From an uncultured bacterium (GTDB lineage Bacteria > Oederibacteriota > PGYV01 > CAWJRG01), in assembly GCA_963845185.1 (NCBI GenBank), contig CAWJRG010000005.1:96001-160000 (forward strand): a DNA stretch of 64,000 bases, written 5' to 3'. The translations under genes and the position numbers were made by a program. Below the pieces are notes generated by a model. The model ran no database searches. It was not told the DNA's origin and saw nothing but the letters and a program-made list of their open reading frames with translations. Shown piece after piece: positions 1 through 38,740 of this stretch. Within the stretch, counting starts at the first letter, position 1, and every line of letters starts with the position of its first letter.

Positions 1-3000
1 TGTATTCGTATGCCCGTATGGGTCAGTTGTTGTTTCCTTTATGTAATACACTCCATTTGCTACATCCTGGCCTGCGCTGTTAGTGCCGTCCCACGTGAAG
101 TCCGCATATCCGCCTTTTGCCTGGTTAGGCGTCTCTATATCAGGCATCCTTATTATCAGTGACGTGCCTGATCCAGGCAACACCAGCCCTGTCTGGCTGC
201 CGTTCAGCAATAATTGCATATTCTGTGCCTCTTGCGAAGTAGTTGTATTTGCTACCACTTTCACCAGTTCTCCCGCCTCGTTATACACGCTTATGTTCAT
301 CGCATAAGGGAAAGGTTGCGACGTCCCTGTAATCGTCGCCGTTGCTGTGGTTGTCAGCGTATTTGTTATCGAAGCTGTAATCGTGTTTGTTTCTGTGGAT
401 GTCATCGAATAAGTTATCGACGCCGTCGCCGTTTTAGTCGTCGTGGATGTTGTCGTAAGCGTATTAGTATGTGTAGCGGTTATCGTAATAGTTATCGTAA
501 AAGTGTAAGTACAAGTTTTTGTGAGGGTGACGCTGCACGTAGGACTTGCTGTTTGCGTAACTGTTGACGTATTTGCAGGCGTATTTGTATATGTTGAAGT
601 AGATGTGTATGTTAGTGTTGCAGTCAGCGTATTAGTATGTGTGTTTGTGGAAGTTGCAGTTATTGTATATGTGCTTGTTAGCGTCTGCGTGTACGTAGCC
701 GTATCTGTATTTGTATATGTGTATGTTGGCGAAGCCGTGTAAGTCGGCGTTATAGTCGGCGTATTCGTAAATGTAGGCAGTGTTGTTAATGTATTTGTCA
801 TTGTCGCTGTATACGTATAAGTGTATGTCACTGTCTGCGTGTAAGTGTATGTCGGCGATAGCGTATTTGTGTATGTCGGTGTTGACGTTGAAGTTGGCGT
901 CTGCGTATTTGTCAGCGTTACTGTATATGTCGGCGTCTGCGTATTTGTCGCTGTTGACGTATACGTATAAGTGTATGTCACTGTCTGCGTGTAAGTACAT
1001 GTCGGCGACAGCGTATCTGTGTATGTAGTCGTTGCTGTTGGTGTAGAAGTCTGCGTATTTGTCAGCGTTACTGTATATGTCGGTGTCTGTGTGTTTGTGG
1101 ATGTCGAAGTTTGCGTGAATGTATAAGTATCCGTCTGCGTATATGTATATGTCAGTGTTAGCGTGCCTGTGCATGTCGGCGTTGCCGTCGGCGTAGAAGT
1201 CTGTGTGCATGTCAGAGTTACTGAATAAGTCGGTGTCTGCGTTTTTGTCGCTGTCGGCGTATAAGTATATGTATAGGTGTCAGTCTGCGTGTATGTTGGC
1301 GTCACTGAAGGCGTATTTGTACTTGTAGCTGTCGGTGTATAAGTATATGTATATGTGTAGGTTGGGGTATTTGTATAAGTGTATGTTGGCGTAGGCGTAT
1401 TTGTAAATGTCGGTGACGGCGTGTTTGTGGGAGTAACCGTGTATGTTGGCGTTACTGTAGGTGTATCTGTAACAGTGGAACCTGGCGGCGGCGGCGTATT
1501 TGTTGGTGACACGCATAACACGTTGAATACAACAGGATTGGAAAATTCCGGTACTATACTCGACGCACCTATACCGCCTACATTTGTAAAACTCTGGCCG
1601 CAAGCTGATGTAGATGCCCACCATGTATATGAACCGCTCTGATCGCTTATATTGCCCAGGCTCCATGTCACCATCTGTGGTGACCCTCCGACGCCTGTGG
1701 CAACCGGGTTGGAGTTTATATACGTCAATCCCGCGGGTATCGTGTCATACAAAACCGCACTTGCCGCAACCCTCGGTATTAATACAGTAAAATTATTATA
1801 TGAATCCTGTACATTGCCGGTGGTACTTGACTGCTGTCCAACTCCAGGCCTCCAGTCAGTATATGTTGCGCCTGCACCGCAGTTAAAGCCAGTGATAGCC
1901 GCGCCTGTATCTGTCCATGTAACCTGGTAAGCTGATGGCTCAGGTTGTCCAATCTGCCATATCTTTGAATTAAACACATAATTATTGCCGTTTTGCGTCA
2001 TCCATGTCTTTGTCCTGTACCATGTGTTACCGGTTATTGTAACTGCATCTGACGCACCGCCATACGTGCAACCAGACCCCGCGCATTTCTGTATGGCCAT
2101 ATACCCGCCTGCGGGATTGGTGTCTATTGATAAAAGAAGGCTATAGGCTTCGGCATTATTGCCTGCCTGTCCGTTGCTCCTCAAAATCACCAGGCCGTCT
2201 GCTCCGGGATATGTCCCGGGGCTTATAAAAACATCCGCCTCAACTATGCCTGTGCATATCTGCACGTTCTCTGTATTTCCAGAAGGGTCATTCAGCAAAA
2301 GCGCTGGATATGAGTTTGCCTGGCCTGCTCCGGTTAATATCCTGTCTCCTGTACTGCATGGGTCTGAAATTGTCCATGTGCCATAATCGGTATTATACGG
2401 CAAATATTCCCATCCTGACGGCGCTGCCGCCGGGTAGGTGTAAGTATTCAGTGCTGTATCGTCAAACGCCCTGTAGTCCTTAAGCTGGTCTCCGTTTATC
2501 TGGTAATTAAGATAATATGTTATGGTGACAGAAGCTCCCGGTTGTTTCATGAATGTGCTCACGCTCTCCAGTTTTTGCACTGATATTGCTGCCTCGCCCA
2601 CTGTCAGCGTTGCCGAAGAACTGCCGTTATTTCCTCCGATTGTGCTGGTTGCCGTATTTGACACCATCATTCCCGATGCCATCGCCGTAGTCATGCTCAT
2701 CAATATCCATACTGTGCCTGTCTTTGTGTAGATTGAACTTGGGAATGTCCATGTTACCGTGCCTGACATGGTACCTGCTGCAGGTGCATTCACGCTTCCT
2801 CCTGATATTGAACTCGGCCCGACAGACACAAGTGCAAGGTTTCCTCCGCCCGGCAGGCTGTCTGTTATTGTAAACGGCCCTCCATTCCCGTATGTGTAAT
2901 CAATTGAAAATAGAACCAGGTCCCCGACATACTGCAGCACGCCTTCTACCCTTTTATTCAATGTGTATGAATTGGTCAACGGCACCGGCATTGTCCAGCT

Positions 3001-3564
3001 TACAGCTCTCGCGTTGCAAGAGCTGCTCGTCAAGTCAGCCCAGTCTTGAGACTGTAAACCTGCGCTTTTTGTACCAACAAGCAGGTAAAGTGTCGTCGAG
3101 CCGCATTCTGTCCCCATGTCCGCAGCATTCGGCATTGTAAGGTTAAATGAGAATGCCTGCGGATAGCCATCGTTGCTGCCGGTACATGTACTGCAGCTTA
3201 ATATTGGCGTTGGACTTATATTCGGCGGCTGCCACCCCATATCATTGCTGGGACCATTCGGACTTGTGCTGTGAACGTCAATGCCTAAGTTGCTTACTAA
3301 AAATATCTGGCCTCCCGAATTGGCAGGCTGAAATGTATTGCTTGTGCTCACTGCAATATCAAGGTCGTTCTCCGAGTTATAAGCATCATGGCATATCTGC
3401 AAATTAACCACAAATTGTTGTCCCCAAGTTGGATTTTGAGGAGTAATACTTAATGAGGTTATTGAAGGATTGGCTGCATAAGCAGTATTACTGGCTATTA
3501 ATAGTATAAATAGTATTATAACTTTGGGAATGTTTATCCGTTTAAAGTGTTTTTGCAGATTCAT
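1..3564 (-). CDS. Very large secreted/surface protein (>1188 aa, runs off the window start): signal peptide, beta-rich DUF11-like domains, long Thr/Pro-rich linker, FlgD-Ig-like domain
   Basis: Absent from the ORF track, consistent with no stop inside the window. ATG at 3564 after AAGGGG RBS gives MNLQKHFKRINIPKVIILFILLIASNTAYAANPSITS. Spot-checked lines stay in frame through the TPTYT/TQT repeats (~330-1500) to VYNEAGELVK...WDGTNSAGQDVANGVYYIK. Confidence 0.9.
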   Translation of the reverse strand, partial: MNLQKHFKRINIPKVIILFILLIASNTAYAANPSITSLSITPQNPTWGQQFVVNLQICHDAYNSENDLDIAVSTSNTFQPANSGGQIFLVSNLGIDVHSTSPNGPSNDMGWQPPNISPTPILSCSTCTGSNDGYPQAFSFNLTMPNAADMGTECGSTTLYLLVGTKSAGLQSQDWADLTSSSCNARAVSWTMPVPLTNSYTLNKRVEGVLQYVGDLVLFSIDYTYGNGGPFTITDSLPGGGNLALVSVGPSSISGGSVNAPAAGTMSGTVTWTFPSSIYTKTGTVWILMSMTTAMASGMMVSNTATSTIGGNNGSSSATLTVGEAAISVQKLESVSTFMKQPGASVTITYYLNYQINGDQLKDYRAFDDTALNTYTYPAAAPSGWEYLPYNTDYGTWTISDPCSTGDRILTGAGQANSYPALLLNDPSGNTENVQICTGIVEADVFISPGTYPGADGLVILRSNGQAGNNAEAYSLLLSIDTNPAGGYMAIQKCAGSGCTYGGASDAVTITGNTWYRTKTWMTQNGNNYVFNSKIWQIGQPEPSAYQVTWTDTGAAITGFNCGAGATYTDWRPGVGQQSSTTGNVQDSYNNFTVLIPRVAASAVLYDTIPAGLTYINSNPVATGVGGSPQMVTWSLGNISDQSGSYTWWASTSACGQSFTNVGGIGASSIVPEFSNPVVFNVLCVSPTNTPPPPGSTVTDTPTVTPTYTVTPTNTPSPTFTNTPTPTYTYTNTPTYTYTYTYTPTATSTNTPSVTPTYTQTDTYTYTYTPTATKTQTPTYSVTLTCTQTSTPTATPTCTGTLTLTYTYTQTDTYTFTQTSTSTNTQTPTYTVTLTNTQTSTPTATTTYTDTLSPTCTYTQTVTYTYTYTSTATNTQTPTYTVTLTNTQTPTSTSTPTYTNTLSPTYTYTQTVTYTYTYTATMTNTLTTLPTFTNTPTITPTYTASPTYTYTNTDTATYTQTLTSTYTITATSTNTHTNTLTATLTYTSTSTYTNTPANTSTVTQTASPTCSVTLTKTCTYTFTITITITATHTNTLTTTSTTTKTATASITYSMTSTETNTITASITNTLTTTATATITGTSQPFPYAMNISVYNEAGELVKVVANTTTSQEAQNMQLLLNGSQTGLVLPGSGTSLIIRMPDIETPNQAKGGYADFTWDGTNSAGQDVANGVYYIKETTTDPYGHTNT
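330..1500 (-). repeat. Low-complexity Thr-X repeat region, including a ~150-bp tandem duplication (809-1100)
   Basis: Alternating Thr codons (TPTYTVTLTNTQT). GTATACGTATAAGTGTATGTCACTGTCTGCGTGTAAGT occurs at 809 and 959. Confidence 0.85.
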
Positions 3565-3756: not shown

Positions 3757-5799
3757 CTATTGCATCACAGATTGTTTTTTATCAATTATTGTTTTCAATT
3801 GCATTGCATTTATGTTATTGCTGTTAAATTTAATAGCATTATCAACATATTCAGTTGCTTTTGACGTTTCGCCCCTGTTTAAGTAAATAGCTGCAAGATA
3901 TGAATAGGCATAAGATGCTTTAGGGTTTAATTCAAGTGCTTCGTTCCAGTATTTTTCCGCATTTTGCGTATTGCCCAAATTGTAATAACACGATCCTATA
4001 TTTATTAGTGTCTGGTCCGAGGGTAGAAAAAGGTAGCTTCTTTTATAAAGTTTTATTGCGGTATCATAATGGCCGGCCCTGTTTAATTTATCCGCAACTG
4101 TAATAAAACTCCATGCATAATGTTTTACAGCCAACAGGTTCGTGAAATCGTCATAATTTATTTTATCGCCTATTATGCCTCTGTAGGAATATAAATCAAA
4201 AAAAATATTATTTGTAAGAATTTGTTTATTGCCTCCTGTCAATACTCTGTTAACAATGCCAACTGGTACAAAAGGAAGCTTCTGCCATTCCGCCGTAAAT
4301 GCGTTAGAATAATATATTCCTTTTTCGGAATTTGACATCATTGTTTTGTACAAATAATCAGTTCCGCTATTTTCCATTTCCGGCAATATTATTGCGTCAT
4401 GGTAATCATTTTTCAGTTGTTTCCTGTACCAATCATACTCGAGTAAGCGCGTGTTAATAAAAACAAAATCCTTTTTATTAACAAAAGATTCGTAAAGTGC
4501 GGAACTCATATTGAGATCGCCTTCTGTGAAAAAAAGCGACTTTTCAGGCAGGGTTTTTATAATATTTTCAGCATAATCATACCCAATGAAATACCTTGAG
4601 TAATCGGTTGCGTTAAATGCAGGCAAAATAATAGCTGTTGATATTGCTAAATATATATTTCTTTTTGTTCTTTGATCAATTTTTTTCAAAAAATTTATAA
4701 TAAAAGAGATGCCCGATGAAATGAATATAGAAATAAAAATATAAGACGATGTAAAATAAGGTTTTATTACCCATTCTATGCCGGGCTTGGGTGTAGAAAT
4801 TGAAATTATGCCTACCACAATAAATATATACGCAATGCTTATTGTTATTGCTTCTGTCTTAAATTGCTTTATTAAAAAATACGTTCCGGGTATTAAAAAC
4901 AATACAACATAAAAAGGGTACTCGTTCGTCAATAGATTTTTTATATAAAACCATAAAAGATGGAATGTATCAGTTATAGAATGCGCGCTTTCTGCATACC
5001 TGTATTGCTCCCTACTAATCAGCCAGAATAAATCCCTGATTGTCTTTATTTCTCCCCATGCAAAAACCGGTATGTTTTGACTTCTGATAAATGCAAATAA
5101 ATATACGGATGCACCAAGCAGAAAAAAAATTCCGCCAATAAGCAAGAATGCCGTTTTGAAATATTTTCGGTTAAAAATTAAATAATATAATACTGCTGGA
5201 AAAATTACAGCCATGCTTTGCCAGTGATTTCCCATTGATAATCCGTAAACAAAAGAAAATAAGTAAAAATATTTGATATGCTTTTTTAAATTAAATAATG
5301 ATAAAAAAATTATAATTGTAAAAAATGCGTTAATTGTATAAATGCTTCCCTTTGCCGACAAGGACTGTAAAAACGGCGTTGTGCAGAATAAATACAGCGC
5401 CGCCGATATAAAAGCAAAAAAATTATTCCCATATTTCGTATTTTTGTTTATAACAAAATATCTATTTACAAATATAAAAACCAGCAGGGCTGTTATTATA
5501 TTAAAAACCAATGCGGTTAGATTGCTTCTGTACATGATGTTGCCGGCTGGAATTAACGTGAATATCTTGCCGATAAGAGTATTCAGAGGGTATCCAGGCG
5601 GGTGCTGAATGCCGAGGGTATAAAAAGCCGTGGTGGTTTCCGGACTGTCATCGGAATTAAAAGTTGGCGCTATTTTTAAAATCCCGAATTGCCAAACTGC
5701 AATAAACGCGGTCAAGATAATCAAAAGCATCCTGATTTTGGTTGGTTTATTGAAAAAATGAAAAATCTGCATTTGATTGTTCTTAATTTGCTTAAGCAA
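3757..5799 (-). CDS. DUF2723 / TMEM260-like GT-C glycosyltransferase with C-terminal TPRs
   Basis: Motif DDSPE...TLGIQHPPGYPL; many TM helices; GLSMGNH; TPR repeats at C-terminus. Confidence 0.8.
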   Translation of the reverse strand: MLKQIKNNQMQIFHFFNKPTKIRMLLIILTAFIAVWQFGILKIAPTFNSDDSPETTTAFYTLGIQHPPGYPLNTLIGKIFTLIPAGNIMYRSNLTALVFNIITALLVFIFVNRYFVINKNTKYGNNFFAFISAALYLFCTTPFLQSLSAKGSIYTINAFFTIIIFLSLFNLKKHIKYFYLFSFVYGLSMGNHWQSMAVIFPAVLYYLIFNRKYFKTAFLLIGGIFFLLGASVYLFAFIRSQNIPVFAWGEIKTIRDLFWLISREQYRYAESAHSITDTFHLLWFYIKNLLTNEYPFYVVLFLIPGTYFLIKQFKTEAITISIAYIFIVVGIISISTPKPGIEWVIKPYFTSSYIFISIFISSGISFIINFLKKIDQRTKRNIYLAISTAIILPAFNATDYSRYFIGYDYAENIIKTLPEKSLFFTEGDLNMSSALYESFVNKKDFVFINTRLLEYDWYRKQLKNDYHDAIILPEMENSGTDYLYKTMMSNSEKGIYYSNAFTAEWQKLPFVPVGIVNRVLTGGNKQILTNNIFFDLYSYRGIIGDKINYDDFTNLLAVKHYAWSFITVADKLNRAGHYDTAIKLYKRSYLFLPSDQTLINIGSCYYNLGNTQNAEKYWNEALELNPKASYAYSYLAAIYLNRGETSKATEYVDNAIKFNSNNINAMQLKTIIDKKQSVMQ

Positions 5800-5804
5800 A
5801 ATTA

Positions 5805-7490
5805 TTACTTCTTAATCACTATGTTTCTTTCCAGCGTATAATTTTGCCGGCTGTTTTTTACGACCATCCTCAGTATATATAATCCGCTTCCGGCAATGAA
5901 ACCATTGTCTGTTTTGCCGTCCCATACCACTGTATTACCGCCTGCCAGGCTTCCGTCTGAGCCCTTATTTATTTCCTTTTTCCACAGTACTCCGCCGTAT
6001 ACGTTATAAACCCAAAATCTCACATCACTGTCATAGTCAAGGTAATAATTTATCGCCGTGGTTTCCCTTCCTGCCGCAAACGGGTTTGGCTGGTTTATAA
6101 ATTTATGGCTGTTTGGCGTTGATACGGAACATATAAGCTGAACAGTTTCTGTAACCGGCATGCCGTGCGGCTGGGCTGAAATCACAGTCCTTGTGTTAGC
6201 GTCCGGCGCTGTGAAGACGATGCCTGCGTTACCGTAATAATCTGTTGTTGCTGTCCTGGTACTAATGCTGCCCTCACCACTTATTATTGCGAAATCCACT
6301 GCTGTATTTGATACCGGATTTAAGTAAGCATCCTCGATAAAAGCCGTCAGGTTTGCCGTATTGCCTTTTCCCAATGTATAATTATCCGCGGTAAAGCTGC
6401 AAACAACAGGACTGCTGCTGTAAATATGCATCAAGTTTGACGGCGACACTGCCGTTATTGAGATGGAATTGTTGCAGCAGTAATAACTAGGAACTATTTC
6501 CAGATTTGGCACGCCCCAAACCGTATCCCTCTTATTATAACTTACCATTGTCATGCCCGCGCCATTCGTAATTGAAAGAGTATTATTGGGCGCAGATATG
6601 GGTACGGTCATGTTAGGGTTCGTGCTCTGAAAATATATTGTTGCAGTCCATGTGAAGCTGTTTATCGGAGGCCCGCCTTGTGAATGTGACATTGTGACTG
6701 TCACAGGGAAAGGTACCCCCGCAATTGCCGCTATCGGTACGCTTGCCGATATATAATATTGCGTCAAAGTGTTGAACCAAACTTGTTGAGAAAAGAAAAT
6801 AGTCGGGTTATTGAAATCATTGCAATACAATTGCTGGTAGGCTGCCTCGTCCGGGCTGGGAGTTACTGTTAAACCAAAATAACCCATGTCTCCTGTTGAA
6901 CTCAGGTCAATGGTCACTGGTGTAACCGAATAGGCACAAGTTTTTACTGTAAGCATTACTGTCGGCAAATTCGTCGTGATCATATTGTAATAAGCATCCG
7001 TAGCTATAACTGTCACATTAAAAGGTATTGTAGTTGTCTGGTTGGCGGGAGAACCAGTGTACCCGGAAACTGTGCCCGGCGCATATACCATTCCATCGGT
7101 TAAGAGCAATAATTTTGAGTAAGTCCCCGGCATCACGTTAACGTTCGCAGTACTTGTAACGCCCAATGAGTAGTCGGTTGCGGTCAGGGTTACAAGATTT
7201 CCAGCGCCTGTTAAATAAACCGTTCCGTTCCAAAAACCTGCGGAGAAATTAGGCGTCACATTTGTGCTGGTTGCCGAGATACCTACGTAGCCAACCGATG
7301 CGGTTAAAGTTACGTTTCCCGAGTAGCCTGTCATCACGGAATTATTTGTATCATAAGCGGTAATCGCCAAGGTCATTGGTTGGCCTGCCGTACCACTGGA
7401 AATAGACAACATAAAATACCCTAAACTATCGGCATAAACCGCGCTAGCCGTGATAAACAACAATGTTATGAATAAAAACATTTTTTTCAT
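5805..7490 (-). CDS. Secreted Ig-like-domain protein with C-terminal FlgD-Ig/T9SS-CTD-like domain
   Basis: Signal peptide ending AVYA; Ig-like segments; C-terminal PNPF...YN..G...WDGK..NG...SGLYILR. Confidence 0.75.
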   Translation of the reverse strand: MKKMFLFITLLFITASAVYADSLGYFMLSISSGTAGQPMTLAITAYDTNNSVMTGYSGNVTLTASVGYVGISATSTNVTPNFSAGFWNGTVYLTGAGNLVTLTATDYSLGVTSTANVNVMPGTYSKLLLLTDGMVYAPGTVSGYTGSPANQTTTIPFNVTVIATDAYYNMITTNLPTVMLTVKTCAYSVTPVTIDLSSTGDMGYFGLTVTPSPDEAAYQQLYCNDFNNPTIFFSQQVWFNTLTQYYISASVPIAAIAGVPFPVTVTMSHSQGGPPINSFTWTATIYFQSTNPNMTVPISAPNNTLSITNGAGMTMVSYNKRDTVWGVPNLEIVPSYYCCNNSISITAVSPSNLMHIYSSSPVVCSFTADNYTLGKGNTANLTAFIEDAYLNPVSNTAVDFAIISGEGSISTRTATTDYYGNAGIVFTAPDANTRTVISAQPHGMPVTETVQLICSVSTPNSHKFINQPNPFAAGRETTAINYYLDYDSDVRFWVYNVYGGVLWKKEINKGSDGSLAGGNTVVWDGKTDNGFIAGSGLYILRMVVKNSRQNYTLERNIVIKK

Positions 7491-7519
7491 TTTTTATCTC
7501 CTTGAATTTCGAAAAACCT

Positions 7520-9436
7520 TCAACTTATTTTCATGTATTCTTCTATTGTAGTCGTTCCTTCAATAAGCTTGTCAAATGCTGTTTCTTTTAAGGACTTAAA
7601 CCCGTTTTTCTTGTTTTCTTCCCTTATTTTTTTTGTAGCTTCCTTATTTATAAGCATTTCCTTTATTTTTTCGTTTATCGCTATCATTTCAAACACGGCT
7701 GTCCTGCCTTTATAGCCGGTATTTGTGCAATTTGAACAGCCCTTTCCTTTATAAAACACAGGTTTTTTATTGGAAAAGCCTTCTGCCTGCAGAACATTTA
7801 TTATATCGCCAGATGGTTCGTAAGGCGCTTTGCAGTTTTTATCTATCTTCCTCAAAAGCCTCTGCCCCAGCACGACAAGAGTATTTGAAAGAACCACATA
7901 AGGTTCCAGGCCCAGGCTTATTATAGTCTGCAAAGCTTGAAACGGATCCGCGGCCCTTACTTTTGAGATCACAAGGTGGCCACCTGCTATTGCTTCAAAA
8001 ACCGCTTCTGCTGTTTCCTTATTCGCTATATCGCCAACTGCTATTACATCGCAGTCCTGCTCCGCAAGGTAAGTAACGGCCTGTCCATAACTTTTCCTGT
8101 TTACTTTTGTCTGGTTTACGCCCTGCAACACGTAATTTGAAGAAGCGTCCTCAACCGTAAAAATATTTATATGCGCCGTGTTAATTTCCGAAAGTGAAGA
8201 ATAAAATGTGGTTGTCTTGCCGCTGTTTGTCGGCCCGGCAATGAGGATAAGCCCGCTCGGCATTTTTAAATATTTCCTGAAAGCATTCAACAGGGTTTCT
8301 TCCATACCTGCCTCATTAAGTGGCATTATTGTATTTTCAGCCCTTAAAATCCTTAAAAGAATTTTTTCCCCGAAGATGGTCGGGAAAGTGTAAACTCCCA
8401 TACTTATTTCCTTGCCCGCAAGCCTCATCTTCAGCTTGCTTTCTTGCGGCAATGTCCTTTCAGCAACGTTCATCTGTGCAAGTTCTTTTATCTTGTTTAA
8501 TATCCCGTTGTATAATGTTTTTGGTGCGGTCTCTACTTCATACAGAGTGCCGTCAATCCTCCTCCTTACCCTGCACTTTTCGGCAAAAGGCTCAATATGC
8601 ACGTCAGTAGCATTTGCGTCATAGGCATCCGAAAGCAGGCTCATTAAAAATGAATTAACCGGCGTGTCCTGGGATATGGCTGCCTGCGCGAATTGTGTCT
8701 CAGGCAGCTTGTATTCCTGCGCCGGTTTTGAAGGTTTTTCACTTATGAATTCCGGTTCCTGTTTCTGCTGAGCCGGTGTTGGTTTTCCCGGTTCGGGTGC
8801 CTTTGACACAGGTTGTTGTGCTGCATGCTCAGGTTTATCCTGCTTCGGCACCAAGTCTTCGGCGTAAACTCCGCGCGTAATTTTTATTTCCTGCGGTGTT
8901 TCCTTGTGCCTGCCGGATAATCCCTGCGTAGGCGTGGACATAATATCCTCAAGCTCGTCTGTTTTTGCCTTGGCGATTTCGCCTGTATCTTCTTCCTTAA
9001 ACCCAAAGTATTTGTCGACCAGCTTTTTAATATCCTCGCTGGGCGCCAGCCTTGAGTCTATGTCGCACCTTGTCGTTGCCTTCATGTCGTCAATCACAAG
9101 AAAATTCATAGGATCTGACATGGCCACAGTTATTGTCTTGCCCTGCTTATTAATCGGTATCAATTTTTCGTTGCGCATGACGGATTCCGGCATTAGTTTT
9201 AAAACATCCTTTTTTATTTCTTGAATTTCTTCGAGGTTTACATAAGGAACCCCCATCTGGTACCCTAAAAAAGTCCAGAGTATTTCTTTTGAAATATACC
9301 CCATCTTCATAAGAATCTGCCCGATTTTCTCTCCGGTTTTTCTTTGCTCTTCAAGGGCGTCTTTTAGTTGTTCCCTGGTAATTATGCCTTCTTCAAGAAG
9401 CATTTCACCTATAAGCATATTGCGCGGTCCTGCCAT
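7520..9436 (-). CDS. MshEN-domain PilB/GspE-family ATPase with degenerate catalytic motifs
   Basis: N-terminal LIGEMLLEEGIITREQLKDALEEQ/KIGQIL; ATDVHIEP, RRRIDG; Walker A GPTNSGKTT; altered Walker B DCDVIAVGDI and His box GGHLVISKVRA; GYKGRTAVFE. Confidence 0.85.
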   Translation of the reverse strand: MAGPRNMLIGEMLLEEGIITREQLKDALEEQRKTGEKIGQILMKMGYISKEILWTFLGYQMGVPYVNLEEIQEIKKDVLKLMPESVMRNEKLIPINKQGKTITVAMSDPMNFLVIDDMKATTRCDIDSRLAPSEDIKKLVDKYFGFKEEDTGEIAKAKTDELEDIMSTPTQGLSGRHKETPQEIKITRGVYAEDLVPKQDKPEHAAQQPVSKAPEPGKPTPAQQKQEPEFISEKPSKPAQEYKLPETQFAQAAISQDTPVNSFLMSLLSDAYDANATDVHIEPFAEKCRVRRRIDGTLYEVETAPKTLYNGILNKIKELAQMNVAERTLPQESKLKMRLAGKEISMGVYTFPTIFGEKILLRILRAENTIMPLNEAGMEETLLNAFRKYLKMPSGLILIAGPTNSGKTTTFYSSLSEINTAHINIFTVEDASSNYVLQGVNQTKVNRKSYGQAVTYLAEQDCDVIAVGDIANKETAEAVFEAIAGGHLVISKVRAADPFQALQTIISLGLEPYVVLSNTLVVLGQRLLRKIDKNCKAPYEPSGDIINVLQAEGFSNKKPVFYKGKGCSNCTNTGYKGRTAVFEMIAINEKIKEMLINKEATKKIREENKKNGFKSLKETAFDKLIEGTTTIEEYMKIS

Positions 9437-9439
9437 ATT

Positions 9440-11158
9440 TTATTCCCCTTTTTTCTTGAATATATCGAAAATCGACTTCTTTTTCGAATCAGGCGGCGTG
9501 CCGCCTACTTCTCCATCAGGCGCTTCAGGCCTTGCCTCTGCCTGCTTGTATTCCTGTCCAGCATACGCCTTAGTAGTCCTGTCCTCCCGGACAATCTTTT
9601 TTTCAAACTCCGTACCCATATGCTCTTTCATTTCATCGACTTCAGAAGACGACAGGCCGCTGTCAGGCGTAATCTTTATTACCTGTTCCTTGCCGGTCAT
9701 CTGGTCTTTGGCAGAAACTTTTATTATACCATTTGCGTCTACGTCAAACATAACTTCTATTTTCGGCTCACCTTTACTAGCCTGCGGTATACCGACCAAG
9801 TCAAAAGTCCCTATTAATTTATTGTCTACTGCCATTGGCTTTTCGCCCTGATAAACTTCAATCCTCACAAACGACTGATTATCTTTTGTCGTGGTATATA
9901 TTTCGCTCTTTCTTATCGGAATTGTGGAATTTTTCTCGATTATCTTGGAAAATATGCCCCCCTCGGTTTTTATGCCGAGTGAAAAAGGAGTAACATCAAG
10001 AAGTAAAATGTCCCTGATATCGCCTTTTAATACCGACGCCTGGTGTGCGGCACCTGCTGCTACAGCCTCGTCCGGGTTTGCACCGAGGTACGGCTCTTTT
10101 TTAAATATTCTTTTTACAGTATCCCTTACAAAAGGCATTTTTGTCTGGCCACCTACAAGCACAACTTCATCTATATCCGAAGGCTTGAAACCCGCATCGG
10201 AAAGGGCCCTGTCGCATGGTATCGCTGTGCTCTCTGACAAATCGCGTGTTATTTCCTCAAGTTTTTCTCTTGTAAGTATTGTCTTTAAATGTTTCGGGCC
10301 TTCTTTTGAAACCGCGATAAACGGCAGGGTTATCTCAACTGAGTCAAGGGTTGACAAATTTATTTTCGCTTTTTCTGCTGCGTCTTTCAACCTCTGAAGC
10401 GCGACCCTGTCTGTCCTTAAATCCACATTCTCAGCTTTGTAAAATTCCGACACAAGCCAGTCAATCACTCTCTGGTCGAAATCATCGCCGCCTAGGTGTG
10501 TATCGCCGTTTGTGGATATTACCTGGAATATCCCCTGCCCAAGCTCAAGTACAGAAACATCGAAAGTGCCTCCTCCAAGGTCGTATATGACTATTCTCAT
10601 CCTTGTCTTGCTGTCAAAGCCGCTGGCTAAAGCCGCAGCAGTCGGCTCGTTGATTATCCTCACGACTTCCATGCCCGATATCCTGCCGGCATCTTTTGTC
10701 GCCTGCCGCTGCGAGTCGTTAAAATACGCCGGAACCGTGATTACGGCTTTTTCTATGGCTTCGCCGAGATACATTTCTGAGTCCTTTTTTAGTTTCATAA
10801 GTATCATTGCGGATATTTCAGGCGGGGAATATGTCCTGCCCATGATCTCAATTTTCACGTCGCCGTTTGATGCCGGCGTTAATTTATAAGGTATTAATTT
10901 AATGTCTTTTTCCACAACTTTATCCGTCATTTTCCTGCCCATGAATCTTTTTATAGAAAAAACCGTGTTTTCTGGGTTCATTATCTGCTGCCTTTTTGCT
11001 GCGTTACCCACAAGTATTGTCCCTTCTTTTGTAAAAGCGACAACAGACGGTGTAGTCCTGAACTTTTCGTCGTTTAAGACTATCTGCGTCTTTCCATCCT
11101 CTATGACTCCTACGCAGGAATTTGTCGTTCCTAAGTCAATTCCTATAATTTTCGGCAC
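9440..11158 (-). CDS. dnaK: Hsp70/DnaK paralogue lacking most of the C-terminal helical lid (572 aa)
   Basis: [35 protein letters not shown], linker DILLLDVTP; homology ends after LSSSEVDEM. Confidence 0.9.
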
Positions 11159-11170
11159 TTGGATTCTCCC

Positions 11171-11746
11171 TTATTGCCCGTCAATCTTTTTTGCCTTATC
11201 TATTTCCCTAATAAGCTCCTGCAGTTTTGCCGTTGTTCTCTCATAAGCCGGGTTTTCCTGATCTAGTCTTACGGTTTCGTTAAAAGTCCTTACGGCATCT
11301 GCAAGTTTGTTTGTAGCAACATAAATAACGCCCATGTTAAACATTGCCTCAGCCGTTTTAAAAGCATCAAAAGACTGTTGGAATTTTAAAAGTGCTTTGC
11401 CTTTTTCCCTTTCAAATGCTTCCACCCCTTCGTTGAAATATATCATCGCGTCCTCGTATCTTTTTTTATCTCCACCCTGAAAAATTCCAAATTTATATTC
11501 CTTTGTCTTTTCCTTTAACGGATAAAATATTAAAAAATTATAAATCTTCCTTTTTATCGGGTCGGATAGGATTCTGTGCGCTTCCACTGCCTCGGAGGTT
11601 TTCACATGTGCCCACTCCGCTTTGTCCGGATTATGGTCCGGATGGTACTCATAAAGCTTATCTCTGAAAGCGCGCTCGATTTCCTCATCGGTTGCTGCTG
11701 GATTAACATCCAGGAGTTCGTAGTAATTTTGCTTTTTTTCTGGCAT
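11171..11746 (-). CDS. J-domain (DnaJ-like) protein with C-terminal TPR
   Basis: NYYELLDV...YHPDHNP (HPD intact); TPR AEAMFNMGVIY. Confidence 0.85.
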   Translation of the reverse strand: MPEKKQNYYELLDVNPAATDEEIERAFRDKLYEYHPDHNPDKAEWAHVKTSEAVEAHRILSDPIKRKIYNFLIFYPLKEKTKEYKFGIFQGGDKKRYEDAMIYFNEGVEAFEREKGKALLKFQQSFDAFKTAEAMFNMGVIYVATNKLADAVRTFNETVRLDQENPAYERTTAKLQELIREIDKAKKIDGQ

Positions 11747-11757
11747 TATCGTAACCT

Positions 11758-13209
11758 CTAAAACTTCGTTCCTGTAAGTTTAAAAATATCAAGGTTGGTG
11801 CCGTCGCTTAAAACAACCGAGTCTATTCTGTCGTATTTTGCGAGCGTATCAGTTAAGGCCACCACCTCTTTTGTAGTAAAAATATCCGTCGTATATTTCT
11901 TTTTTTCGCCATATTTCGAGGCAAAACCCAAATAATCAATTATAGCATTATACTTTTCAACGGACAATTTATCAATAAAATTTTTGGCGATGTTTCCTGC
12001 TGATATTATAAAGTTTATCTTGAAGTCCTCCACGGTATACCCTAAAGTCAGCTTGCTTTTTACCATGTTCACAAGCTCCTTCCTTATTTCTACTGTAGAT
12101 ATCAGTGCGCGCTTCGCATCGTCTGTATGCTGAAAAGGGTATCCGAATGAAATCAATACAAACCTGTCCGTAACTTTAAAAATTGCTCCCTGGTAATTTA
12201 TTGCAACCGCTGTAACTTTTTCTATAAATTTTTTTAAAATATCTTTTAATTCTTCGCTTATCAGTTCAAAGGTAAAATTCGACAGGGCCAATGTATCGAT
12301 AAAAACAAAAATTGCCCTGTTTTCATCTCCTGTTGAGGCCGGATAATAATCCTTGGCTATTTTGTCGGTCATTTCCTGGTAAGTGAGCATCTCATATGCC
12401 TTTTTCATGCTGTCTATCTCTTTTAACCCTTCCGCGACTGTGTCAAAAGCGTCCTTTATCCTGACTTTTTCCTTGAGTTCCACTATCATTCTGTTGAAAT
12501 CATCTGCAAGCACCCCGACTTCATCGTTGCTTTTTACGTTAACCGACACGTCAAGGTTGCCTTCCGCGACTTTTCTCATACCCGCCGCGATTATATTGAA
12601 CGCCTTTGTGATTATATCAGCCAGCGTCCACGCCCCGCCTAATCCGAAAAGCAGCAACAAAACTGTAAGGCCTATCATTGTAAATATAGTCATATGCAGC
12701 TTCTTTAAATAATCCTTCTTTGAAAACTTAATAATAACTGAAAACTGCTGCTCTCCTTTCATCTCAATCTTCTCAGTTTCTTTTGCGGTATAGTCTATTT
12801 TGTTGTTTACGAGGGTCTTGATAAACTCATCTCTATCCTCGTTTATTTTAATTTCCGGAAAGTCGCTCTTTAAAAGCGCTGTATTTATCGCCTTAGCTTT
12901 TATGGAACCTGTGGGGTCCATTATCGCGATGAGAAGTATGTTTTTATCCAGGTTTGTCATTATATTCATAACCTTGTCGTAAATAGCCCAGTTTACATTC
13001 TTTTCTTGCAATGGATTCACACCAATGCGCACAGCGCTTATTGTATTAACGATTTGGAGTATGCTTTTTTTCATGTCGTTTCTCTGGATTGAAACATTCA
13101 GAGTTAGCGAATAATAAAAGGTTACCCCCATTGTAATAATAATCAAAACAAATATAAGTATTGCTATTTTATATCTTAAGCTGAATTTTACTTTTCGAAG
13201 GGTTGCCAT
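11758..13209 (-). CDS. Membrane sensor: 2 TM + HAMP + degenerate class III nucleotide cyclase-like domain
   Basis: HAMP (VAEGNLDVSVNVKSNDEVGVLADDFNRM); cyclase-like IFVFID...YQGAIFK...ISFGYP..HTDDAKRA. Confidence 0.7.
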   Translation of the reverse strand: MATLRKVKFSLRYKIAILIFVLIIITMGVTFYYSLTLNVSIQRNDMKKSILQIVNTISAVRIGVNPLQEKNVNWAIYDKVMNIMTNLDKNILLIAIMDPTGSIKAKAINTALLKSDFPEIKINEDRDEFIKTLVNNKIDYTAKETEKIEMKGEQQFSVIIKFSKKDYLKKLHMTIFTMIGLTVLLLLFGLGGAWTLADIITKAFNIIAAGMRKVAEGNLDVSVNVKSNDEVGVLADDFNRMIVELKEKVRIKDAFDTVAEGLKEIDSMKKAYEMLTYQEMTDKIAKDYYPASTGDENRAIFVFIDTLALSNFTFELISEELKDILKKFIEKVTAVAINYQGAIFKVTDRFVLISFGYPFQHTDDAKRALISTVEIRKELVNMVKSKLTLGYTVEDFKINFIISAGNIAKNFIDKLSVEKYNAIIDYLGFASKYGEKKKYTTDIFTTKEVVALTDTLAKYDRIDSVVLSDGTNLDIFKLTGTKF

Positions 13210-13228
13210 AAGATAACTTGTTTTCTCC

Positions 13229-14629
13229 TTATTTCGCCACGGATTCCATCGCGTTTACGGATGAAACCGCGTCAGCGTAATATATTACGCCGTTTTCTGC
13301 AATGCAGGACGATTTGATGTCTGCCTCAAAAAGCTGAGACCACTTTTTATCCCCTGTTTTGATGTCTATGGCAAAAATCTCTTTGCCTCCTGCACCGTAC
13401 AGTACATCGTTTACAAGTAAAGGTGCAGTCATTACCTTGCCTGCTATTTCCGCTTTCCAGATCAGCTTGCCGCTTTTCGCGCTCAGAGCATATAGATTTT
13501 TATCATTACTTCCCATGTATAAAACGCCGTCCTTTATCACAGGCGCTGACGACAACCATCCTTTGGTTTCAAAAACCCATTGCAATGCGCCTGTCATCGA
13601 ATCAAGGCAATATATTTTTTTATCATCGGCGCCAAAATAAAGTTTCCCTTCTGCTTCAGCTGCCGTTGAGAATACAGGGCCTTCTGCCTGGTACTTCCAT
13701 GCCGGCTTGCCGCTTTCCACGTCAAGTGCATAAAGTATTCTATCGGCTGAACCAATATAAACAAGGCCGTTTGCTATAGTAGGTGAGCCGGCTACAGGAC
13801 CTCCTGTTTTGAATACCCATGCCTGCTCTCCCGTCCTTCTGTCAAAAGCATAAACATTCGAGTCCATGCACCCTATGTATACTACATTTGAGAAAACAGC
13901 AGGCGAAGAAGCATTAATCGCCGCTGGCAGGTCTTTTTTCCATAAAATCTTTCCTTTTGTGTCAACCGCGAAAAATGTCCCGAGTTCATTGCCGAAATAA
14001 AGTATTTTTCCGTAAAGCGCCGCGGTTGAAGATACTGTACCGCCAACCGAGATTTTCCACACTTGTTGTCCCGTGACTTTGTCGATGGCGTAAAAATTAT
14101 TGTCTTTTGAACCGATGTAAATATTCTTATCATCCATTATAGGTGATGCCGAAAAACCCATGCCTGTTTTGAATTTCCATTTAAAATCAAGCGGCGGCAG
14201 AATGTTCAATCCGTTATAAAAATCGTGTGTAGGAAGGCTCCTAAACATCTCCCATACATACGCGCCTTTTTCTCTTTTTTCGCTTGTAAGCTGCTTTGAA
14301 GCGCTGACCACCGCAACTTTTTGTTGCTCTATCTCCTGTTTTAATTTTGTAATCTCGGTCTTGTTTGCTTTGCCTGTCTTTTTTGTGCTAAGTTCTCCTT
14401 GTAATTCGGCAAGCTTGTCGCGCTGCTCCTTTACCTGTTTCTGCAGACCTTCGAGTTGGTTTAATTCCTCTTCGCCCGAAACATTAAGGTCTATTTTTAT
14501 TTCCTCCTCGGACTTTTCATTACCGCATCCGCCCAAGCAGCCGTTAAACAAAACCATTATGAATATACCTATCGCCCCAAAGCATACTATTCTCTTCATA
14601 AATGTAATGCCCCTTTCGATTTTTTTCAT
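13229..14629 (-). CDS. Lipoprotein with coiled coil and PQQ-type (BamB-like) beta-propeller repeats
   Basis: Lipobox-like FNGC/LGGC; repeated SSP...YIGS.D..YA.D..TG...W units; alternative start 14599 has an RBS. Confidence 0.85.
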   Translation of the reverse strand: MKKIERGITFMKRIVCFGAIGIFIMVLFNGCLGGCGNEKSEEEIKIDLNVSGEEELNQLEGLQKQVKEQRDKLAELQGELSTKKTGKANKTEITKLKQEIEQQKVAVVSASKQLTSEKREKGAYVWEMFRSLPTHDFYNGLNILPPLDFKWKFKTGMGFSASPIMDDKNIYIGSKDNNFYAIDKVTGQQVWKISVGGTVSSTAALYGKILYFGNELGTFFAVDTKGKILWKKDLPAAINASSPAVFSNVVYIGCMDSNVYAFDRRTGEQAWVFKTGGPVAGSPTIANGLVYIGSADRILYALDVESGKPAWKYQAEGPVFSTAAEAEGKLYFGADDKKIYCLDSMTGALQWVFETKGWLSSAPVIKDGVLYMGSNDKNLYALSAKSGKLIWKAEIAGKVMTAPLLVNDVLYGAGGKEIFAIDIKTGDKKWSQLFEADIKSSCIAENGVIYYADAVSSVNAMESVAK

Positions 14630-14671
14630 TTATTTGTAAGTAAAAACACCATTTTCTTAATCTATACTTTT

Positions 14672-14700
14672 ATATTATCAAAAAACAGGGGGTGTGTCAA
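14672..14700 (-). promoter_or_regulatory. sigma70-type promoter heading the PQQ-to-DUF2723 gene run
   Basis: TTGACA-N17-TAATAT. Confidence 0.6.
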
Positions 14701-14864: not shown

Positions 14865-15230
14865 TTATTCGCCTATTATCTCTGTTATAACCTTTCTGTC
14901 CTGGTTGTTAAGCGTTATAAATTCAATGCCAAAATTATTTTTACTTGCATCGGTATCGAGCCACTTTATCTCGGCAAAAGTCGTAACCGGCTTCTCGTTG
15001 CCTTCCACAAATATTTCAACCCTGATAATGTCTCCTTGTTTTGCCTTCATTTCCCCTTCTATCCGTGCTCCGCCAAGGCTGATATTTTCAGTTCCACCCT
15101 GTTTTTTTGCTACTATTCCCTTTATTTTCTCAAGGTCGTCTTCCTGCCCCAATACCTTGTATTTGACTTTATATTTCTTGTCTACTCTAATGTGCTGCCT
15201 TTTTTCTATATAAAGCCTGCCTTCGTCCAT
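14865..15230 (-). CDS. Stand-alone PilZ-domain (c-di-GMP-binding) protein
   Basis: EKRQHIR (RxxxR) and NISLGG. Confidence 0.85.
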   Translation of the reverse strand: MDEGRLYIEKRQHIRVDKKYKVKYKVLGQEDDLEKIKGIVAKKQGGTENISLGGARIEGEMKAKQGDIIRVEIFVEGNEKPVTTFAEIKWLDTDASKNNFGIEFITLNNQDRKVITEIIGE

Positions 15231-15407: not shown

Positions 15408-16217
15408 TTACTTAACTCTTTTCAATTTCGGGTTAAAATAATCCCGCAGCCCCTCGCCCAGCAGATTATAGGAAAAAACCGCTATAAAAATAGCCATGCC
15501 TGGGAAAGCTGTCAACCACCATGCGGTCTCAATATAATCTTTTCCTGAAGTCAGGATATTCCCCCAGCTTGGCACAGGCGGCTGCACGCCTAGTCCAAGG
15601 AACGACAACCCTGATTCTATTAGTATCGCGCCCGATATCCCGAAAGTCATGTAAACGAAAACAGGCGCGAGTGCATTAGGTATAATATGCCTGAATATTA
15701 TAGTACTTTCTTTCAAGCCGATTATTTTTGCTGCGTCTACATAGGCCATATTTTTTATGCTTAAAACTTCAGCCCTTATTATCCTGGCTATGTCTGTCCA
15801 TGAAGTCAGACCTATTACTATCATAATATTTATAAGTGACGGCCCTAGGAATACAATTAACATAAGTATTAAAAAAAGCGTAGGTATAGTTAATACAATG
15901 TCCACAATTCTCATTATAATGTTGTCAATGATTCCGCCGTAAAATCCGGATATTGCGCCTATTGTAATCCCTATGATTGCCGCGATAAACACGGCTATTA
16001 TGCCGACGCTGATTGATATCCTTGTACCGTATATCATCCTCGAAAAAACATCCCTGCCAAACTCATCCGTGCCGAAAATATGCTTAAAAGATGGTTGCTG
16101 CAGGCGCTCGCTTATATTTTGCGCCTTATAATCGTAGGTCGTAAAAAGGGGCGCAAATATTGCCAGTGCAATCAAAAGAACTGCGGCTATCATTCCTGTT
16201 AACATCATCTTGTTCAC
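15408..16217 (-). CDS. oppC: Peptide/nickel ABC transporter permease (OppC/DppC family)
   Basis: HIFGTDEFGRDVFSR; LSFLGLGVQPPVPSWG. Confidence 0.9.
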   Translation of the reverse strand: MNKMMLTGMIAAVLLIALAIFAPLFTTYDYKAQNISERLQQPSFKHIFGTDEFGRDVFSRMIYGTRISISVGIIAVFIAAIIGITIGAISGFYGGIIDNIIMRIVDIVLTIPTLFLILMLIVFLGPSLINIMIVIGLTSWTDIARIIRAEVLSIKNMAYVDAAKIIGLKESTIIFRHIIPNALAPVFVYMTFGISGAILIESGLSFLGLGVQPPVPSWGNILTSGKDYIETAWWLTAFPGMAIFIAVFSYNLLGEGLRDYFNPKLKRVK

Positions 16218-16275
16218 ATCGAACTCCGTTTGGCCCTGCAGGCTTTTAATTTATTTATTTTTCTGAACCCCGGCA

Positions 16276-17247: not shown

Positions 17248-17281
17248 TTATAAGGGTGTTTTTTTAAATCTAAAATTATAA

Positions 17282-18166: not shown

Positions 18167-18232
18167 ATATCCTCCGCTATTAGCTTTTTATTGTTTTCAA
18201 CTTTAAAATCCTAAATCTAAATTCTAAAAATA

Positions 18233-19156: not shown

Positions 19157-19181
19157 TTTTTCCTCCGCAGTCTTATCTTAT

Positions 19182-20468: not shown

Positions 20469-20620
20469 ATTAAACCTCCTGGCATGATAAAATTTGAAAA
20501 CAAAATTATTTTACTATTTTATTAATAAAAGTCAATAATTATTTCCTGTTTTTAGTTTCTGGCTTTAATTCTTTAATTTCTTCTTTTACTAAAAAAACTG
20601 GAAACCAAAGAAAAAAATCA

Positions 20621-28681: not shown

Positions 28682-28708
28682 ACAAAAAATCCTCCCCGTC
28701 AATCTCGG

Positions 28709-34427: not shown

Positions 34428-34437
34428 AAAAAACCCT

Positions 34438-35010: not shown

Positions 35011-35025
35011 TAAATAAAATCTCCC

Positions 35026-36707: not shown

Positions 36708-36720
36708 GGCATCTCCCCGT

Positions 36721-37446: not shown

Positions 37447-37508
37447 TTTCTACCTCCTTGATATTATTTAATCCTCAATAGGTATTTTATCGATTTTTCA
37501 AAAAATTA

Positions 37509-37979: not shown

Positions 37980-38118
37980 ATACCCCAAATTTTTACCAAG
38001 TCTCAATTTCATATTATCACTTAAGCTTTATTGCAATTCGGTTAATTAATCCTTAAAACTAAAACATATTATTCTTTTAAGGCTGAATTTTTTAATTTTC
38101 TGAAATTTGTGCATCGGC

Positions 38119-38640: not shown

Positions 38641-38685
38641 ACTCTCACCTCCTTTCATACTTTTTTAATTTCATTTTCTAATAAC

Positions 38686-38714: not shown

Positions 38715-38740
38715 GTATTTTTGTATTTTTTCTGCCAACT

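Follow-up and report, generated by a model that had tools for sequence, protein, structure and literature searches.

We analyzed a window of 64,000 nucleotides (positions 96,001 to 160,000 of contig CAWJRG010000005.1, assembly GCA_963845185.1, from an uncultured bacterium of the Oederibacteriota), in which a sequence-only reading had proposed an operon of seven minus-strand genes running from a propeller lipoprotein to a glycosyltransferase. Coordinates below are those of the window. The seven open reading frames (ORFs) were confirmed at 3757-14629, and the gaps computed from their coordinates were, from the first gene to the last, 19, 11, 12, 3, 29, and 5 nt; genes, gaps, and domains were as that reading had described them. 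The subject of this text is the first five genes, all on the minus strand. They code for a lipoprotein of 466 aa (13229-14629) with a signal peptide, a lipobox cysteine, a coiled-coil stretch, and a BamB/PQQ-like beta-propeller; a membrane sensor of 483 aa (11758-13209), in which a transmembrane (TM) segment, a periplasmic domain, a second TM segment, a HAMP domain, and a degenerate class III cyclase-homology domain follow one another; a class C J-domain protein of 191 aa with a C-terminal TPR domain (J-TPR, 11171-11746); an Hsp70 paralog of 572 aa without the helical lid (9440-11158); and an MshEN-PilB-like protein of 638 aa (7520-9436).

The conservation of the gene order in relatives, a neighborhood check set beforehand, was evaluated in two collections of loci. 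Of 13 loci fetched around orthologs of the PilB-like protein, ten came from the taxonomic order of the window (hereafter the own order) and three from another order, in a lineage labeled candidate division FCPU426; by the names of homologs and public records, the window itself belongs to Candidatus Goldiibacteriota (Goldbacteria). The sequence propeller, sensor, J-TPR, Hsp70, PilB-like was present in 10/10 own-order loci and in 3/3 loci of the other order. A scan with the sensor alignment, made with one genome per species, produced 80 loci, 32 of which had a sensor relative that was either end-to-end or cut by the contig; 12 of these 32 were the same places as among the 13 PilB-like loci (L017-L029). 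All 32 kept the gene order as far as the contigs reach. The J-TPR gene was found in every one of them and the PilB-like gene in 27, the remaining five stopping at the contig edge. In both collections (13 + 32 loci, as far as the contigs reach) the propeller gene was always the first of the five.

All 32 sensor-found loci belong to one candidate phylum (some are labeled otherwise) and fall into two deep lineages, between which the sensor proteins share an identity of only 27-29%. The FCPU426-type lineage carries the five genes between lpxD-lpxC/fabZ-lpxA-lpxI-SMC and recJ-leuA. The flanks are wholly different between the two lineages, and the five genes alone are common to both. These five genes are inherited together as a conserved unit, and to this extent the proposed operon stands; the two last genes of the seven, for an immunoglobulin (Ig)-like secreted protein and a glycosyltransferase-like protein, do not belong to the core. 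The patterns used in the sensor scan were in the HAMP domain, and the range outside the phylum was probed through the sensor and a library of representative proteins that carries no gene context. All the genomes are metagenome-assembled, and the organisms are uncultured.

A co-occurrence survey by sensor profile search covered 99 genomes of the phylum. A strong sensor ortholog was present in 22 of the 24 own-order genomes and in all genomes of the families f15 (4/4) and f18 (11/11); the single genome of family f21 gave a weaker match (257 bits). In ten other families no ortholog was found in 59 genomes, the only matches being those of generic HAMP-cyclases over the C-terminal two thirds. The Hsp70 paralog (63-79% identity, ORFs of ~540-595 aa) was detected in 20 of the 23 other own-order genomes, 4/4 f15 genomes, and 11/11 f18 genomes. 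Relatives of the PilB-like protein with 59-64% identity, full-length or contig-cut, were detected in 21 of the 23 other own-order genomes, while the best matches in other orders had 36-42% identity. Genome G020, which is 94% complete, had neither the sensor nor the PilB-like gene nor the Hsp70 paralog, and the only DnaK that we found there was a canonical one of 652 aa.

With respect to transcription, a sigma-70-like promoter match, TTGACA-17-TAATAT with a TG, is located on the minus strand at 14700-14672, upstream of the propeller gene; it is a consensus match only, with 10 of 12 positions. The best promoter-like match in the region is another one, TTGATA-17-TATAAT with 11 of 12 positions, at 11975-11947 on the same strand. 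It is situated inside the sensor gene, in its 3' part and ~200 nt before the start of J-TPR, and the chaperone and PilB-like genes could be transcribed from it as an internal promoter. Further promoter-like matches occur within the cluster. The search counted 46 promoter-like sites, compared to 31.8 +/- 6.4 in shuffles. Therefore, of the one sigma70 promoter that had been proposed for the cluster, the match itself was recovered, and its singleness is not established, given the 11/12 match inside the sensor gene. Neither grpE nor hrcA is found within the cluster, as had been noted, and GrpE is encoded elsewhere in the genome.

The propeller protein matched PQQ_2 with 158.9 bits and Beta-prop_ACSF4 with 203 bits. 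Its score against the BamB equivalog TIGR03300 was 172.5 bits, under the cut-off of 285.2. The lipobox cysteine behind the signal peptide was present in the window protein and in 30/30 orthologs shown. Since the propeller repeats and the lipobox are present and the TIGR03300 score is under the cut-off, the protein is BamB-like in fold only.

For the sensor, the HAMP domain (41.8 bits) was the sole Pfam match, and the Pfam cyclase family PF00211 gave no match at E 0.01. The periplasmic domain is a small alpha/beta domain that resembles sCache. A profile of the sensor family matched the cyclase structures 6fht and 2w01 at E 2.3e-13. When the AlphaFold2 (AF2) model (pLDDT 77.2) was searched with Foldseek, a WalK-YycH model ranked first, and the cyclases CyaB, Cya2 (2w01), and Ma1120 were matched in the range 0.64-0.76 (for example, CyaB 3r5g with TMt 0.71). 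The C-terminal domain, as modeled, has the cyclase-homology fold.

We aligned the sensor with two true HAMP-cyclases of its own genome, which are encoded on contig 10 (777-779 kb) and contig 11 (31-33 kb) and have Guanylate_cyc scores of 100 and 104 bits, and compared the residues that we take to be the metal-binding aspartates and the transition-state asparagine and arginine. The first metal Asp, D305, is invariant. At the second metal Asp, the sensors have T-[D/E]-[R/K/N/S] where the genome's own cyclases read IGD. The position of the transition-state Asn is variable (G, N, A, S, or D), and the Arg is replaced by Lys. The linker from HAMP to the cyclase domain is 17 residues longer than in the genome's own HAMP-cyclases. 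Judged by these residues, the domain cannot be a canonical cyclase. With a predicted dead cyclase as its sole output domain, the sensor would have to signal by protein contact.

A profile search against 1.84 billion representatives detected two full-length clusters of the sensor family (741 and 632 bits), together with fragments. The next full-length matches had 243 bits or less, and 19/19 next-best proteins examined were ordinary HAMP-cyclases with Guanylate_cyc above the cut-off, several of them with sCache_3. Therefore, the sensor appears to be a lineage-restricted, degenerate offshoot of the sCache-HAMP-cyclase receptors. Such class III cyclases, including the two in the window's genome, share with it the succession of TM segment, periplasmic domain, TM segment, HAMP, and cyclase fold; the sensor differs from them in the missing Pfam cyclase match, the missing second metal Asp and Asn/Arg, and the longer linker. 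A likeness to WalK is confined to the N-terminal half: a small periplasmic alpha/beta domain is followed by HAMP, and the NCBIfam model HK_WalK aligns with residues 10-251. The accessory extracytoplasmic protein encoded beside the sensor also recalls WalK with YycH/YycI. However, the sensor has no kinase domain, and its propeller neighbor is unrelated to YycH/YycI. As a separate observation, the sensor ortholog in genome G059 (C4:78391-79820) is divided between two adjoining frames, one piece covering profile positions 2-200 and the other 206-482, which may be a frameshift or a pseudogene.

The J-TPR protein matched DnaJ with 61.4 bits and TPR_2 with 27.1 bits. The HPD motif (H35-P36-D37) is invariant in 32/32 orthologs, and the linker behind the J domain is conserved as well. 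Only the J domain and the TPR part were matched; the parts typical of classes A and B (Gly/Phe region, zinc finger, and DnaJ_C) are absent, compared to the genome's two full DnaJ proteins, which carry DnaJ_CXXCXGXG and DnaJ_C. The Hsp70 matched PF00012 with 728 bits, in a match confined to positions 1-534 of the 599 in the profile, and NF001413 with 805 bits (cut-off 648). When it was aligned with the genome's own 650-aa DnaK, the ATPase domain, the linker, and the beta substrate-binding domain were seen to be intact. Residues D8, K70, E171, D193, and T198 and the LLLDVT linker are invariant in 30/30 orthologs; invariant, too, are the J-contact positions R167/N170/T173 and the longer linker string LLLDVTP. 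The functional roles of these ATPase and J-contact residues are presumably those of E. coli DnaK.

The helical lid is absent from the AF2 model of the Hsp70, in which a single helix (504-528) is followed by residues of low confidence (pLDDT below 50 for 523-572). The lid is replaced by a low-complexity disordered tail of ~50 residues that ends in a conserved basic-hydrophobic motif. This motif differs by lineage and reads KKK-G-L-F-G-L-F-G in the other lineage. It could be an Hsp70-binding peptide, a membrane anchor of what we take to be the MinD type, or a TPR ligand. Over 11 residues, six own-order rows had a hydrophobic moment of 0.50-0.62 (the top segment of one row being elsewhere than in the tail motif), the other lineage had 0.27-0.37, and the 95th percentile for the Hsp70 of the window was 0.57; these values are not decisive for an amphipathic membrane helix, and neither they nor the AF2 fold distinguish between the three options.

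The sequence-only reading had called this Hsp70 specialized, and a separate canonical set of genes is indeed present in the genome, so that the paralog is not its sole DnaK. A canonical DnaK (650 aa, 907 bits, profile positions 1-599), GroEL, and a DnaJ are encoded at one locus of contig 5, GrpE and a second DnaJ at another. In a quick IQ-TREE analysis of 52 Hsp70 sequences (31 from the module, 19 canonical, and two others), the module Hsp70s of both lineages formed one clade (SH-aLRT 98), apart from the 19 canonical DnaKs. By its residues and its place in the tree, the module Hsp70 is predicted to be a dedicated, catalytically intact, and J-responsive paralog without a lid.

The PilB-like protein has an N-terminal double MshEN motif, an acidic motif, a Pro/Gln-rich linker, and the PilB/GspE ATPase fold. 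It matched T2SSE with 282.8 bits, above the Pfam cut-off, and MshEN with 61.5 bits. Its scores against the PilB equivalog TIGR02538 (427.5) and the GspE equivalog (380.3) were below the respective cut-offs of 675.65 and 630.25. The acidic stretch D-K-Y-F-G-F-K-E-E-D-T-G-E behind MshEN is present in both lineages and not in canonical PilB. Where the genome's own PilB has GPTGSGKT, AEDPVEYE, GEIRD, and ATVHTND, as well as HxxxxxxxH, the window protein reads GPTNSGKT, TVEDASS, GDIAN, and SKVRAAD.

We tallied these motifs in 28 orthologs, 15 from the own order and 13 of the FCPU426 type. In the own order, the residue after the Walker A lysine was T in three proteins, A in eight, E in three, and D in one; the Asp box was without its Pro and second Glu; the Walker B motif had GD in 14 and SD in one, never GE; and the second His of the His box was Arg in 15/15. 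In the FCPU426 type, on the other hand, GK[S/T] was found in 11/13 (GR in the other two), GE in 9/13, and the second His in 11/13. The Walker A lysine is kept in 26 of the 28, and the arginine-rich stretch RxRxRIDG is invariant. Such substitutions make the loss of catalysis well supported for the own-order proteins and doubtful for the FCPU426 type. The varied catalytic replacements within the own order fit a relaxed constraint on catalysis. Together with the cyclase-like domain of the sensor, this agrees with the earlier statement that two components have degenerate catalytic motifs.

The c-di-GMP motif NF053729 was matched by the PilB-like protein with 66.1 bits, above the cut-off of 38. Its two 24-residue MshEN motifs are separated by a spacer of five residues, and the hydrophobic, Gly, and Gln positions all fit. 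The same N-terminal tandem arrangement, with motifs and spacer of these lengths, is described for MshE of Vibrio cholerae (PMC5013675). The differences from MshE are a degenerate ATPase domain and, in the own order, the first Arg, which is Leu in motif 1 and Lys in motif 2. Motif 2 fits the relaxed published pattern, and motif 1 of the own order starts with Leu, not with [RKPN]. Position 10, a Gly in the motif, is occupied by Glu/Asp in the other lineage. According to the MshE study, changes of charged residues, including Arg9, seemingly altered the affinity at most fivefold, while hydrophobic changes lowered it more than tenfold (PMC5013675). When the PilB-like protein and J-TPR were co-folded from alignments of 28 and 32 rows, respectively, and without controls, the score was 0.00 against a mark of 0.32, which speaks neither for nor against binding.

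Parts of this arrangement have been described in other bacteria. In cyanobacteria, a TPR-containing DnaJ and a DnaK paralog are reported as binding partners of PilB, with their genes adjacent to pilB (PMC12288463, PMC13710413). The genes of DnaK1, the TPR-DnaJ3 (sll1384 type), and GrpE are located next to pilBTC, the three proteins bind PilB, and the system affects motility and polysaccharide output; it is described as a pilus-motor system of Nostoc punctiforme, Synechocystis, and Synechococcus elongatus UTEX 3055 (PMC9239167, PMC13710413, PMC12288463). Therein DnaK1 is reported to bind a true PilB (PMC13710413), and this direct binding is a feature of the cyanobacterial system. The two systems have in common a non-housekeeping DnaK paralog, a TPR-bearing J partner, and genes near a gene of the pilB family. 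Unlike the cyanobacterial genes, the module is one tight unit, with no grpE, pilT, or pilC beside it in any related locus; its Hsp70 is lid-less; its PilB paralog is an extra one, with degenerate motifs in the own order; and it adds the propeller lipoprotein and the HAMP pseudo-cyclase. The likeness considered here is one of architecture and gene context. Among the 120 best J-TPR relatives listed we saw no record with a cyanobacterial name, in a search limited by shared words and with many rows unnamed.

In the exopolysaccharide control of Myxococcus xanthus, StkA, a DnaK homolog of 540 aa, is reported to act at a point between type IV pili and the Dif pathway (PMC4319316), and PilB is treated as a signaling protein there (PMC5544727, PMC8265645). 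The StkA/SglK-PilB pathway thus resembles the module in having a short DnaK homolog downstream of type IV pili and a PilB that carries a signal and is not only a motor. It differs in that stkA is accompanied by stkB (SCP2-like) and stkC, and not by genes for a J protein, PilB, or a sensor, and in that the Myxococcus PilB is a working motor, compared to the degenerate PilB-like protein of the own order.

In the literature searched, also under the phylum names, we found no description of this gene combination, and the available text of the Goldbacteria paper (PMC7031533) had no passage on pili, DnaK, or c-di-GMP. The earlier claim that the combination is undescribed should therefore be divided. 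The triad of J-TPR, DnaK paralog, and PilB-family protein is already known from cyanobacteria (PMC12288463, PMC13710413). Not described in the literature that we found are the sensor-linked unit of five genes, the lid-less Hsp70 with its tail motif, the absence of grpE, pilT, and pilC, the degenerate PilB paralog, and the pairing of a propeller with a pseudo-cyclase sensor.

Because of the cyanobacterial DnaK1/DnaJ3-PilB and Myxococcus StkA precedents, we read the module as a sensor-linked axis from chaperone to PilB. Tentatively, and with some reserve, we favor the view that it is a chaperone switch, linked to a sensor and acting on a c-di-GMP-sensing PilB paralog in the manner of DnaK1/DnaJ3-PilB. 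The propeller lipoprotein and the sCache-like periplasmic domain would read a cue at the envelope, and the dimer of HAMP and pseudo-cyclase would pass it on by protein contact. J-TPR would be the adaptor through which ATP hydrolysis by the lid-less Hsp70 is turned on at the site of the sensor. The intact Hsp70 would be the only clearly active ATPase of the module, and the PilB-like protein, which it would bind or remodel, the only plausible client and effector. The PilB-like protein itself would work as a c-di-GMP-sensing switch rather than as a motor. The output might then be a control of type IV pili or of the export of surface polymers or adhesins, as in DnaK1/DnaJ3-PilB and StkA-PilB.

A more specific form of this proposal is a signal-gated Hsp70 machine. 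A docking pseudo-cyclase would recruit J-TPR and fire a possibly membrane-tethered lid-less Hsp70, which would open or close non-catalytic rings of the PilB paralog, while the MshEN part of the ring would read c-di-GMP. We consider this form unlikely. If true, it would combine an envelope cue with a second messenger by chaperone remodeling, and not by phosphorylation or nucleotide synthesis, in the switching of pili or surface polymers; it would also constitute a novel kind of signal transduction in bacteria, with two pseudo-enzymes and a chaperone as its parts.

Several observations weigh against the chaperone-switch proposal. Physical contacts among the five proteins are a prediction from their sequences. 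Because the FCPU426-type PilB-like proteins keep most of the catalytic residues, the description as a non-catalytic switch may hold for the own order only. Given the deviations of the MshEN motifs in both lineages, the binding of c-di-GMP is a prediction. The tail of the Hsp70 was left unplaced in the AF2 model, undocked and with pLDDT 26-33, and the model does not support the tail as a tethered pseudo-substrate. No match at E 1e-3 was found when 15 window proteins, those of the pilus genes and of their neighbors, were searched by tblastn in eight 20-kb stretches near the module in genomes G019, G004, G014, and G034, so that the nearness of the window's pilus genes to the module is not conserved.

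Furthermore, the module is missing from the families f11 and f17, and yet a J-TPR gene stands there immediately before that of an Hsp70 paralog, in unrelated contexts. In an f11 genome (L142 7192-9607, G031) the Hsp70 has 602 aa and a lid, and the context is prfB...gcpE; in an f17 genome (L143 7850-10214, G036) it has 594 aa and no lid, and the context is obg-proB-proA...nadD. Neither a sensor nor a PilB-like gene adjoins these two pairs, and their Hsp70 tails are without the motif. The f17 genomes generally have an Hsp70 of 585-612 aa with 49-53% identity. Hence the role of the pair does not depend on the other three genes, and the pair is the older unit, which the sensor pair and the PilB-like gene either joined or were lost from.

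An alternative that we regard as somewhat unlikely assigns catalysis to the PilB-like protein. It would be a functioning ATPase for assembly or secretion, belonging to a machine of a pilus-like or type II-like kind whose genes are in another place, with J-TPR and Hsp70 as its private chaperones and the sensor pair setting its activation, and the changes in the own order would be tolerated. The FCPU426-type proteins agree with this, with GK[S/T] in 11/13, GE in 9/13, and the second His in 11/13, as do the Walker A lysine in 26/28 and the invariant RxRxRIDG; the pilus cluster of the window (31540-41776) has no pilB beside it, and the partner of DnaK1 in cyanobacteria is a true PilB (PMC13710413). 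However, the own order has replaced the Walker B Glu, the second Glu of the Asp box, and the second His in 15/15 proteins, and the Walker A Ser/Thr in 12/15, by varying A, E, and D. The genome has canonical PilB paralogs elsewhere, with intact motifs and a T2SSE score of 438 bits compared to 283 bits, and no pilC, pilM, or pilin gene accompanies the module in any related locus.

With less probability still, and as an improbable case in our judgment, two independent units would stand side by side, the sensor pair and the chaperone/PilB-like unit, with no signal flowing between them. The occurrence of J-TPR and Hsp70 on their own in f11 and f17 shows the pair to be separable and older, the 11/12 promoter-like match at 11975-11947 is upstream of the J-TPR gene, and the contacts among the proteins are, as said above, a prediction. 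Against such independence stand the single gene order and the gaps of 3-19 nt (in the window), kept in two lineages with sensors of 27-29% identity and unshared flanks. The genes are also jointly present or absent across the 99 genomes, including G020, and a receptor whose sole output is a predicted dead cyclase needs a protein partner.

A role in envelope-stress or secretion quality control, where the sensor would detect damage or jammed export, the membrane-proximal Hsp70/J pair would hold or clear substrates (in the own order perhaps proteins with a FlgD_ig-like C-terminal domain), and the PilB-like protein would be a docking adaptor, agrees with the one to three large C-terminal-domain proteins encoded just downstream in all own-order loci, with the 110 matches of this domain in the genome, with the BamB-like propeller, and with the rapid binding and release of clients by lid-less Hsp70s, and is nevertheless improbable as well, because the downstream genes are absent from the other lineage, nothing links the PilB fold to general protein quality control, and no heat-shock control element or stress regulator was found in the cluster.

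The interest of the module is in the following. For the action of DnaK paralogs on the pilus motor in cyanobacteria and myxobacteria, the published proposals invoke an 'unidentified protein' or a 'working model'. The module sets the likely players, namely a sensor, a J-TPR adaptor, an Hsp70, and a PilB paralog, in one unit of the size of a transcript, kept across a deep split. The five proteins form a small defined set that could be expressed or reconstituted in E. coli for studies of Hsp70 action on a ring of the PilB family and of its gating. The module would also be a clear case, as far as the motifs tell, of a cyclase and a secretion ATPase drifting to non-catalytic roles within one gene unit.

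The range of the J-TPR protein outside the phylum was probed in several ways. Searches in five unrelated genomes gave only J-domain matches in DnaJ-sized ORFs and have no bearing on the range of the module. A search with the TPR part alone detected only four proteins. In the Atlas we saw small J-TPR clusters in Bacillota, Acidobacteriota, and Lentisphaerota, which are leads only and come with no gene context.

The gene after the PilB-like gene (5805-7490, minus strand) codes for the Ig-like secreted protein of 561 aa with a FlgD_ig-like C-terminal domain. Its scores with Big_1 (27.8 bits) and FlgD_ig (21.2 bits) were both under the cut-offs. An Ig/C-terminal-domain gene occupied this position in 10/10 own-order loci, with 32-42% identity, and in 0/3 loci of the other lineage, where recJ follows instead. 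The C-terminal domain had 110 matches at E 0.001 or better in the genome, in ORFs of up to 4197 aa, so that the adjacency of one such protein says little. The secreted cargo was accordingly dropped from the module as a neighbor specific to the own order. The genome-wide family of tail-bearing secreted proteins is very large and includes, in the window, 1-3564 as well as 5805-7490. A type IX secretion reading of the domain was rejected, since no match to a PorU-type sortase above the cut-off was found in the genome; only the last ~100 profile positions matched, in 51 places.

The last of the seven genes (3757-5799, minus strand) codes for a GT-C-type glycosyltransferase-like membrane protein of 680 aa, with PF11028 (TMEM260-like/DUF2723) at 80.1 bits and TPR. 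We found it only in the window's genome, with no tblastn match in the 13 + 32 related loci, and the proposal to count it in the module was withdrawn on this ground. The GC content at this gene is 0.32-0.35 compared to ~0.42 around it. An anti-phage defense reading was likewise rejected, because none of eight proteins matched a PADLOC defense-system family at E 0.001.

On the other side of the module, 235 nt upstream of the propeller gene, a PilZ-domain protein of 121 aa is encoded on the minus strand (14865-15230; 46.4 bits), with the RxxxR and N-x-S-x-x-G motifs read from the translation. A terminator-like hairpin at 14827-14813 on the minus strand, a consensus match only, is located downstream of the PilZ gene, which is probably on a separate transcript. 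In own-order loci that reach far enough, the PilZ gene was 0.15-4.1 kb upstream of the module; it is absent from the other lineage, which has SMC upstream. Directly upstream of PilZ, at 15408-21913, we observed four ABC permease genes, two of the OppB/C type and two of the BPD_transp_1 type, with two solute-binding proteins; these ordinary transporter genes are not next to the module in other loci.

The type IVa pilus cluster of the window is on the minus strand at 31540-41776, 17 kb from the module. It codes for the PilQ secretin, an unassigned ORF of 159 aa, PilO, PilN, PilM, a short ORF (111 aa) that resembles a prepilin peptidase, two pilins, PilC, an ATPase of 356 aa similar to PilT, and another PilZ protein (41420-41776, minus strand). 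Near this cluster, the gene for chorismate synthase appears as two overlapping ORFs, 30322-30831 (profile positions 194-325) and 30779-31501 (profile positions 1-200), which suggests a frameshift, a sequencing error, or a split gene. Also near the pilus cluster, at 27386-28702, is a gene for a protein with an N-terminal TPR part and a C-terminal Roadblock/LC7 domain (43.9 bits), a domain that occurs in MglB-type polarity regulators.

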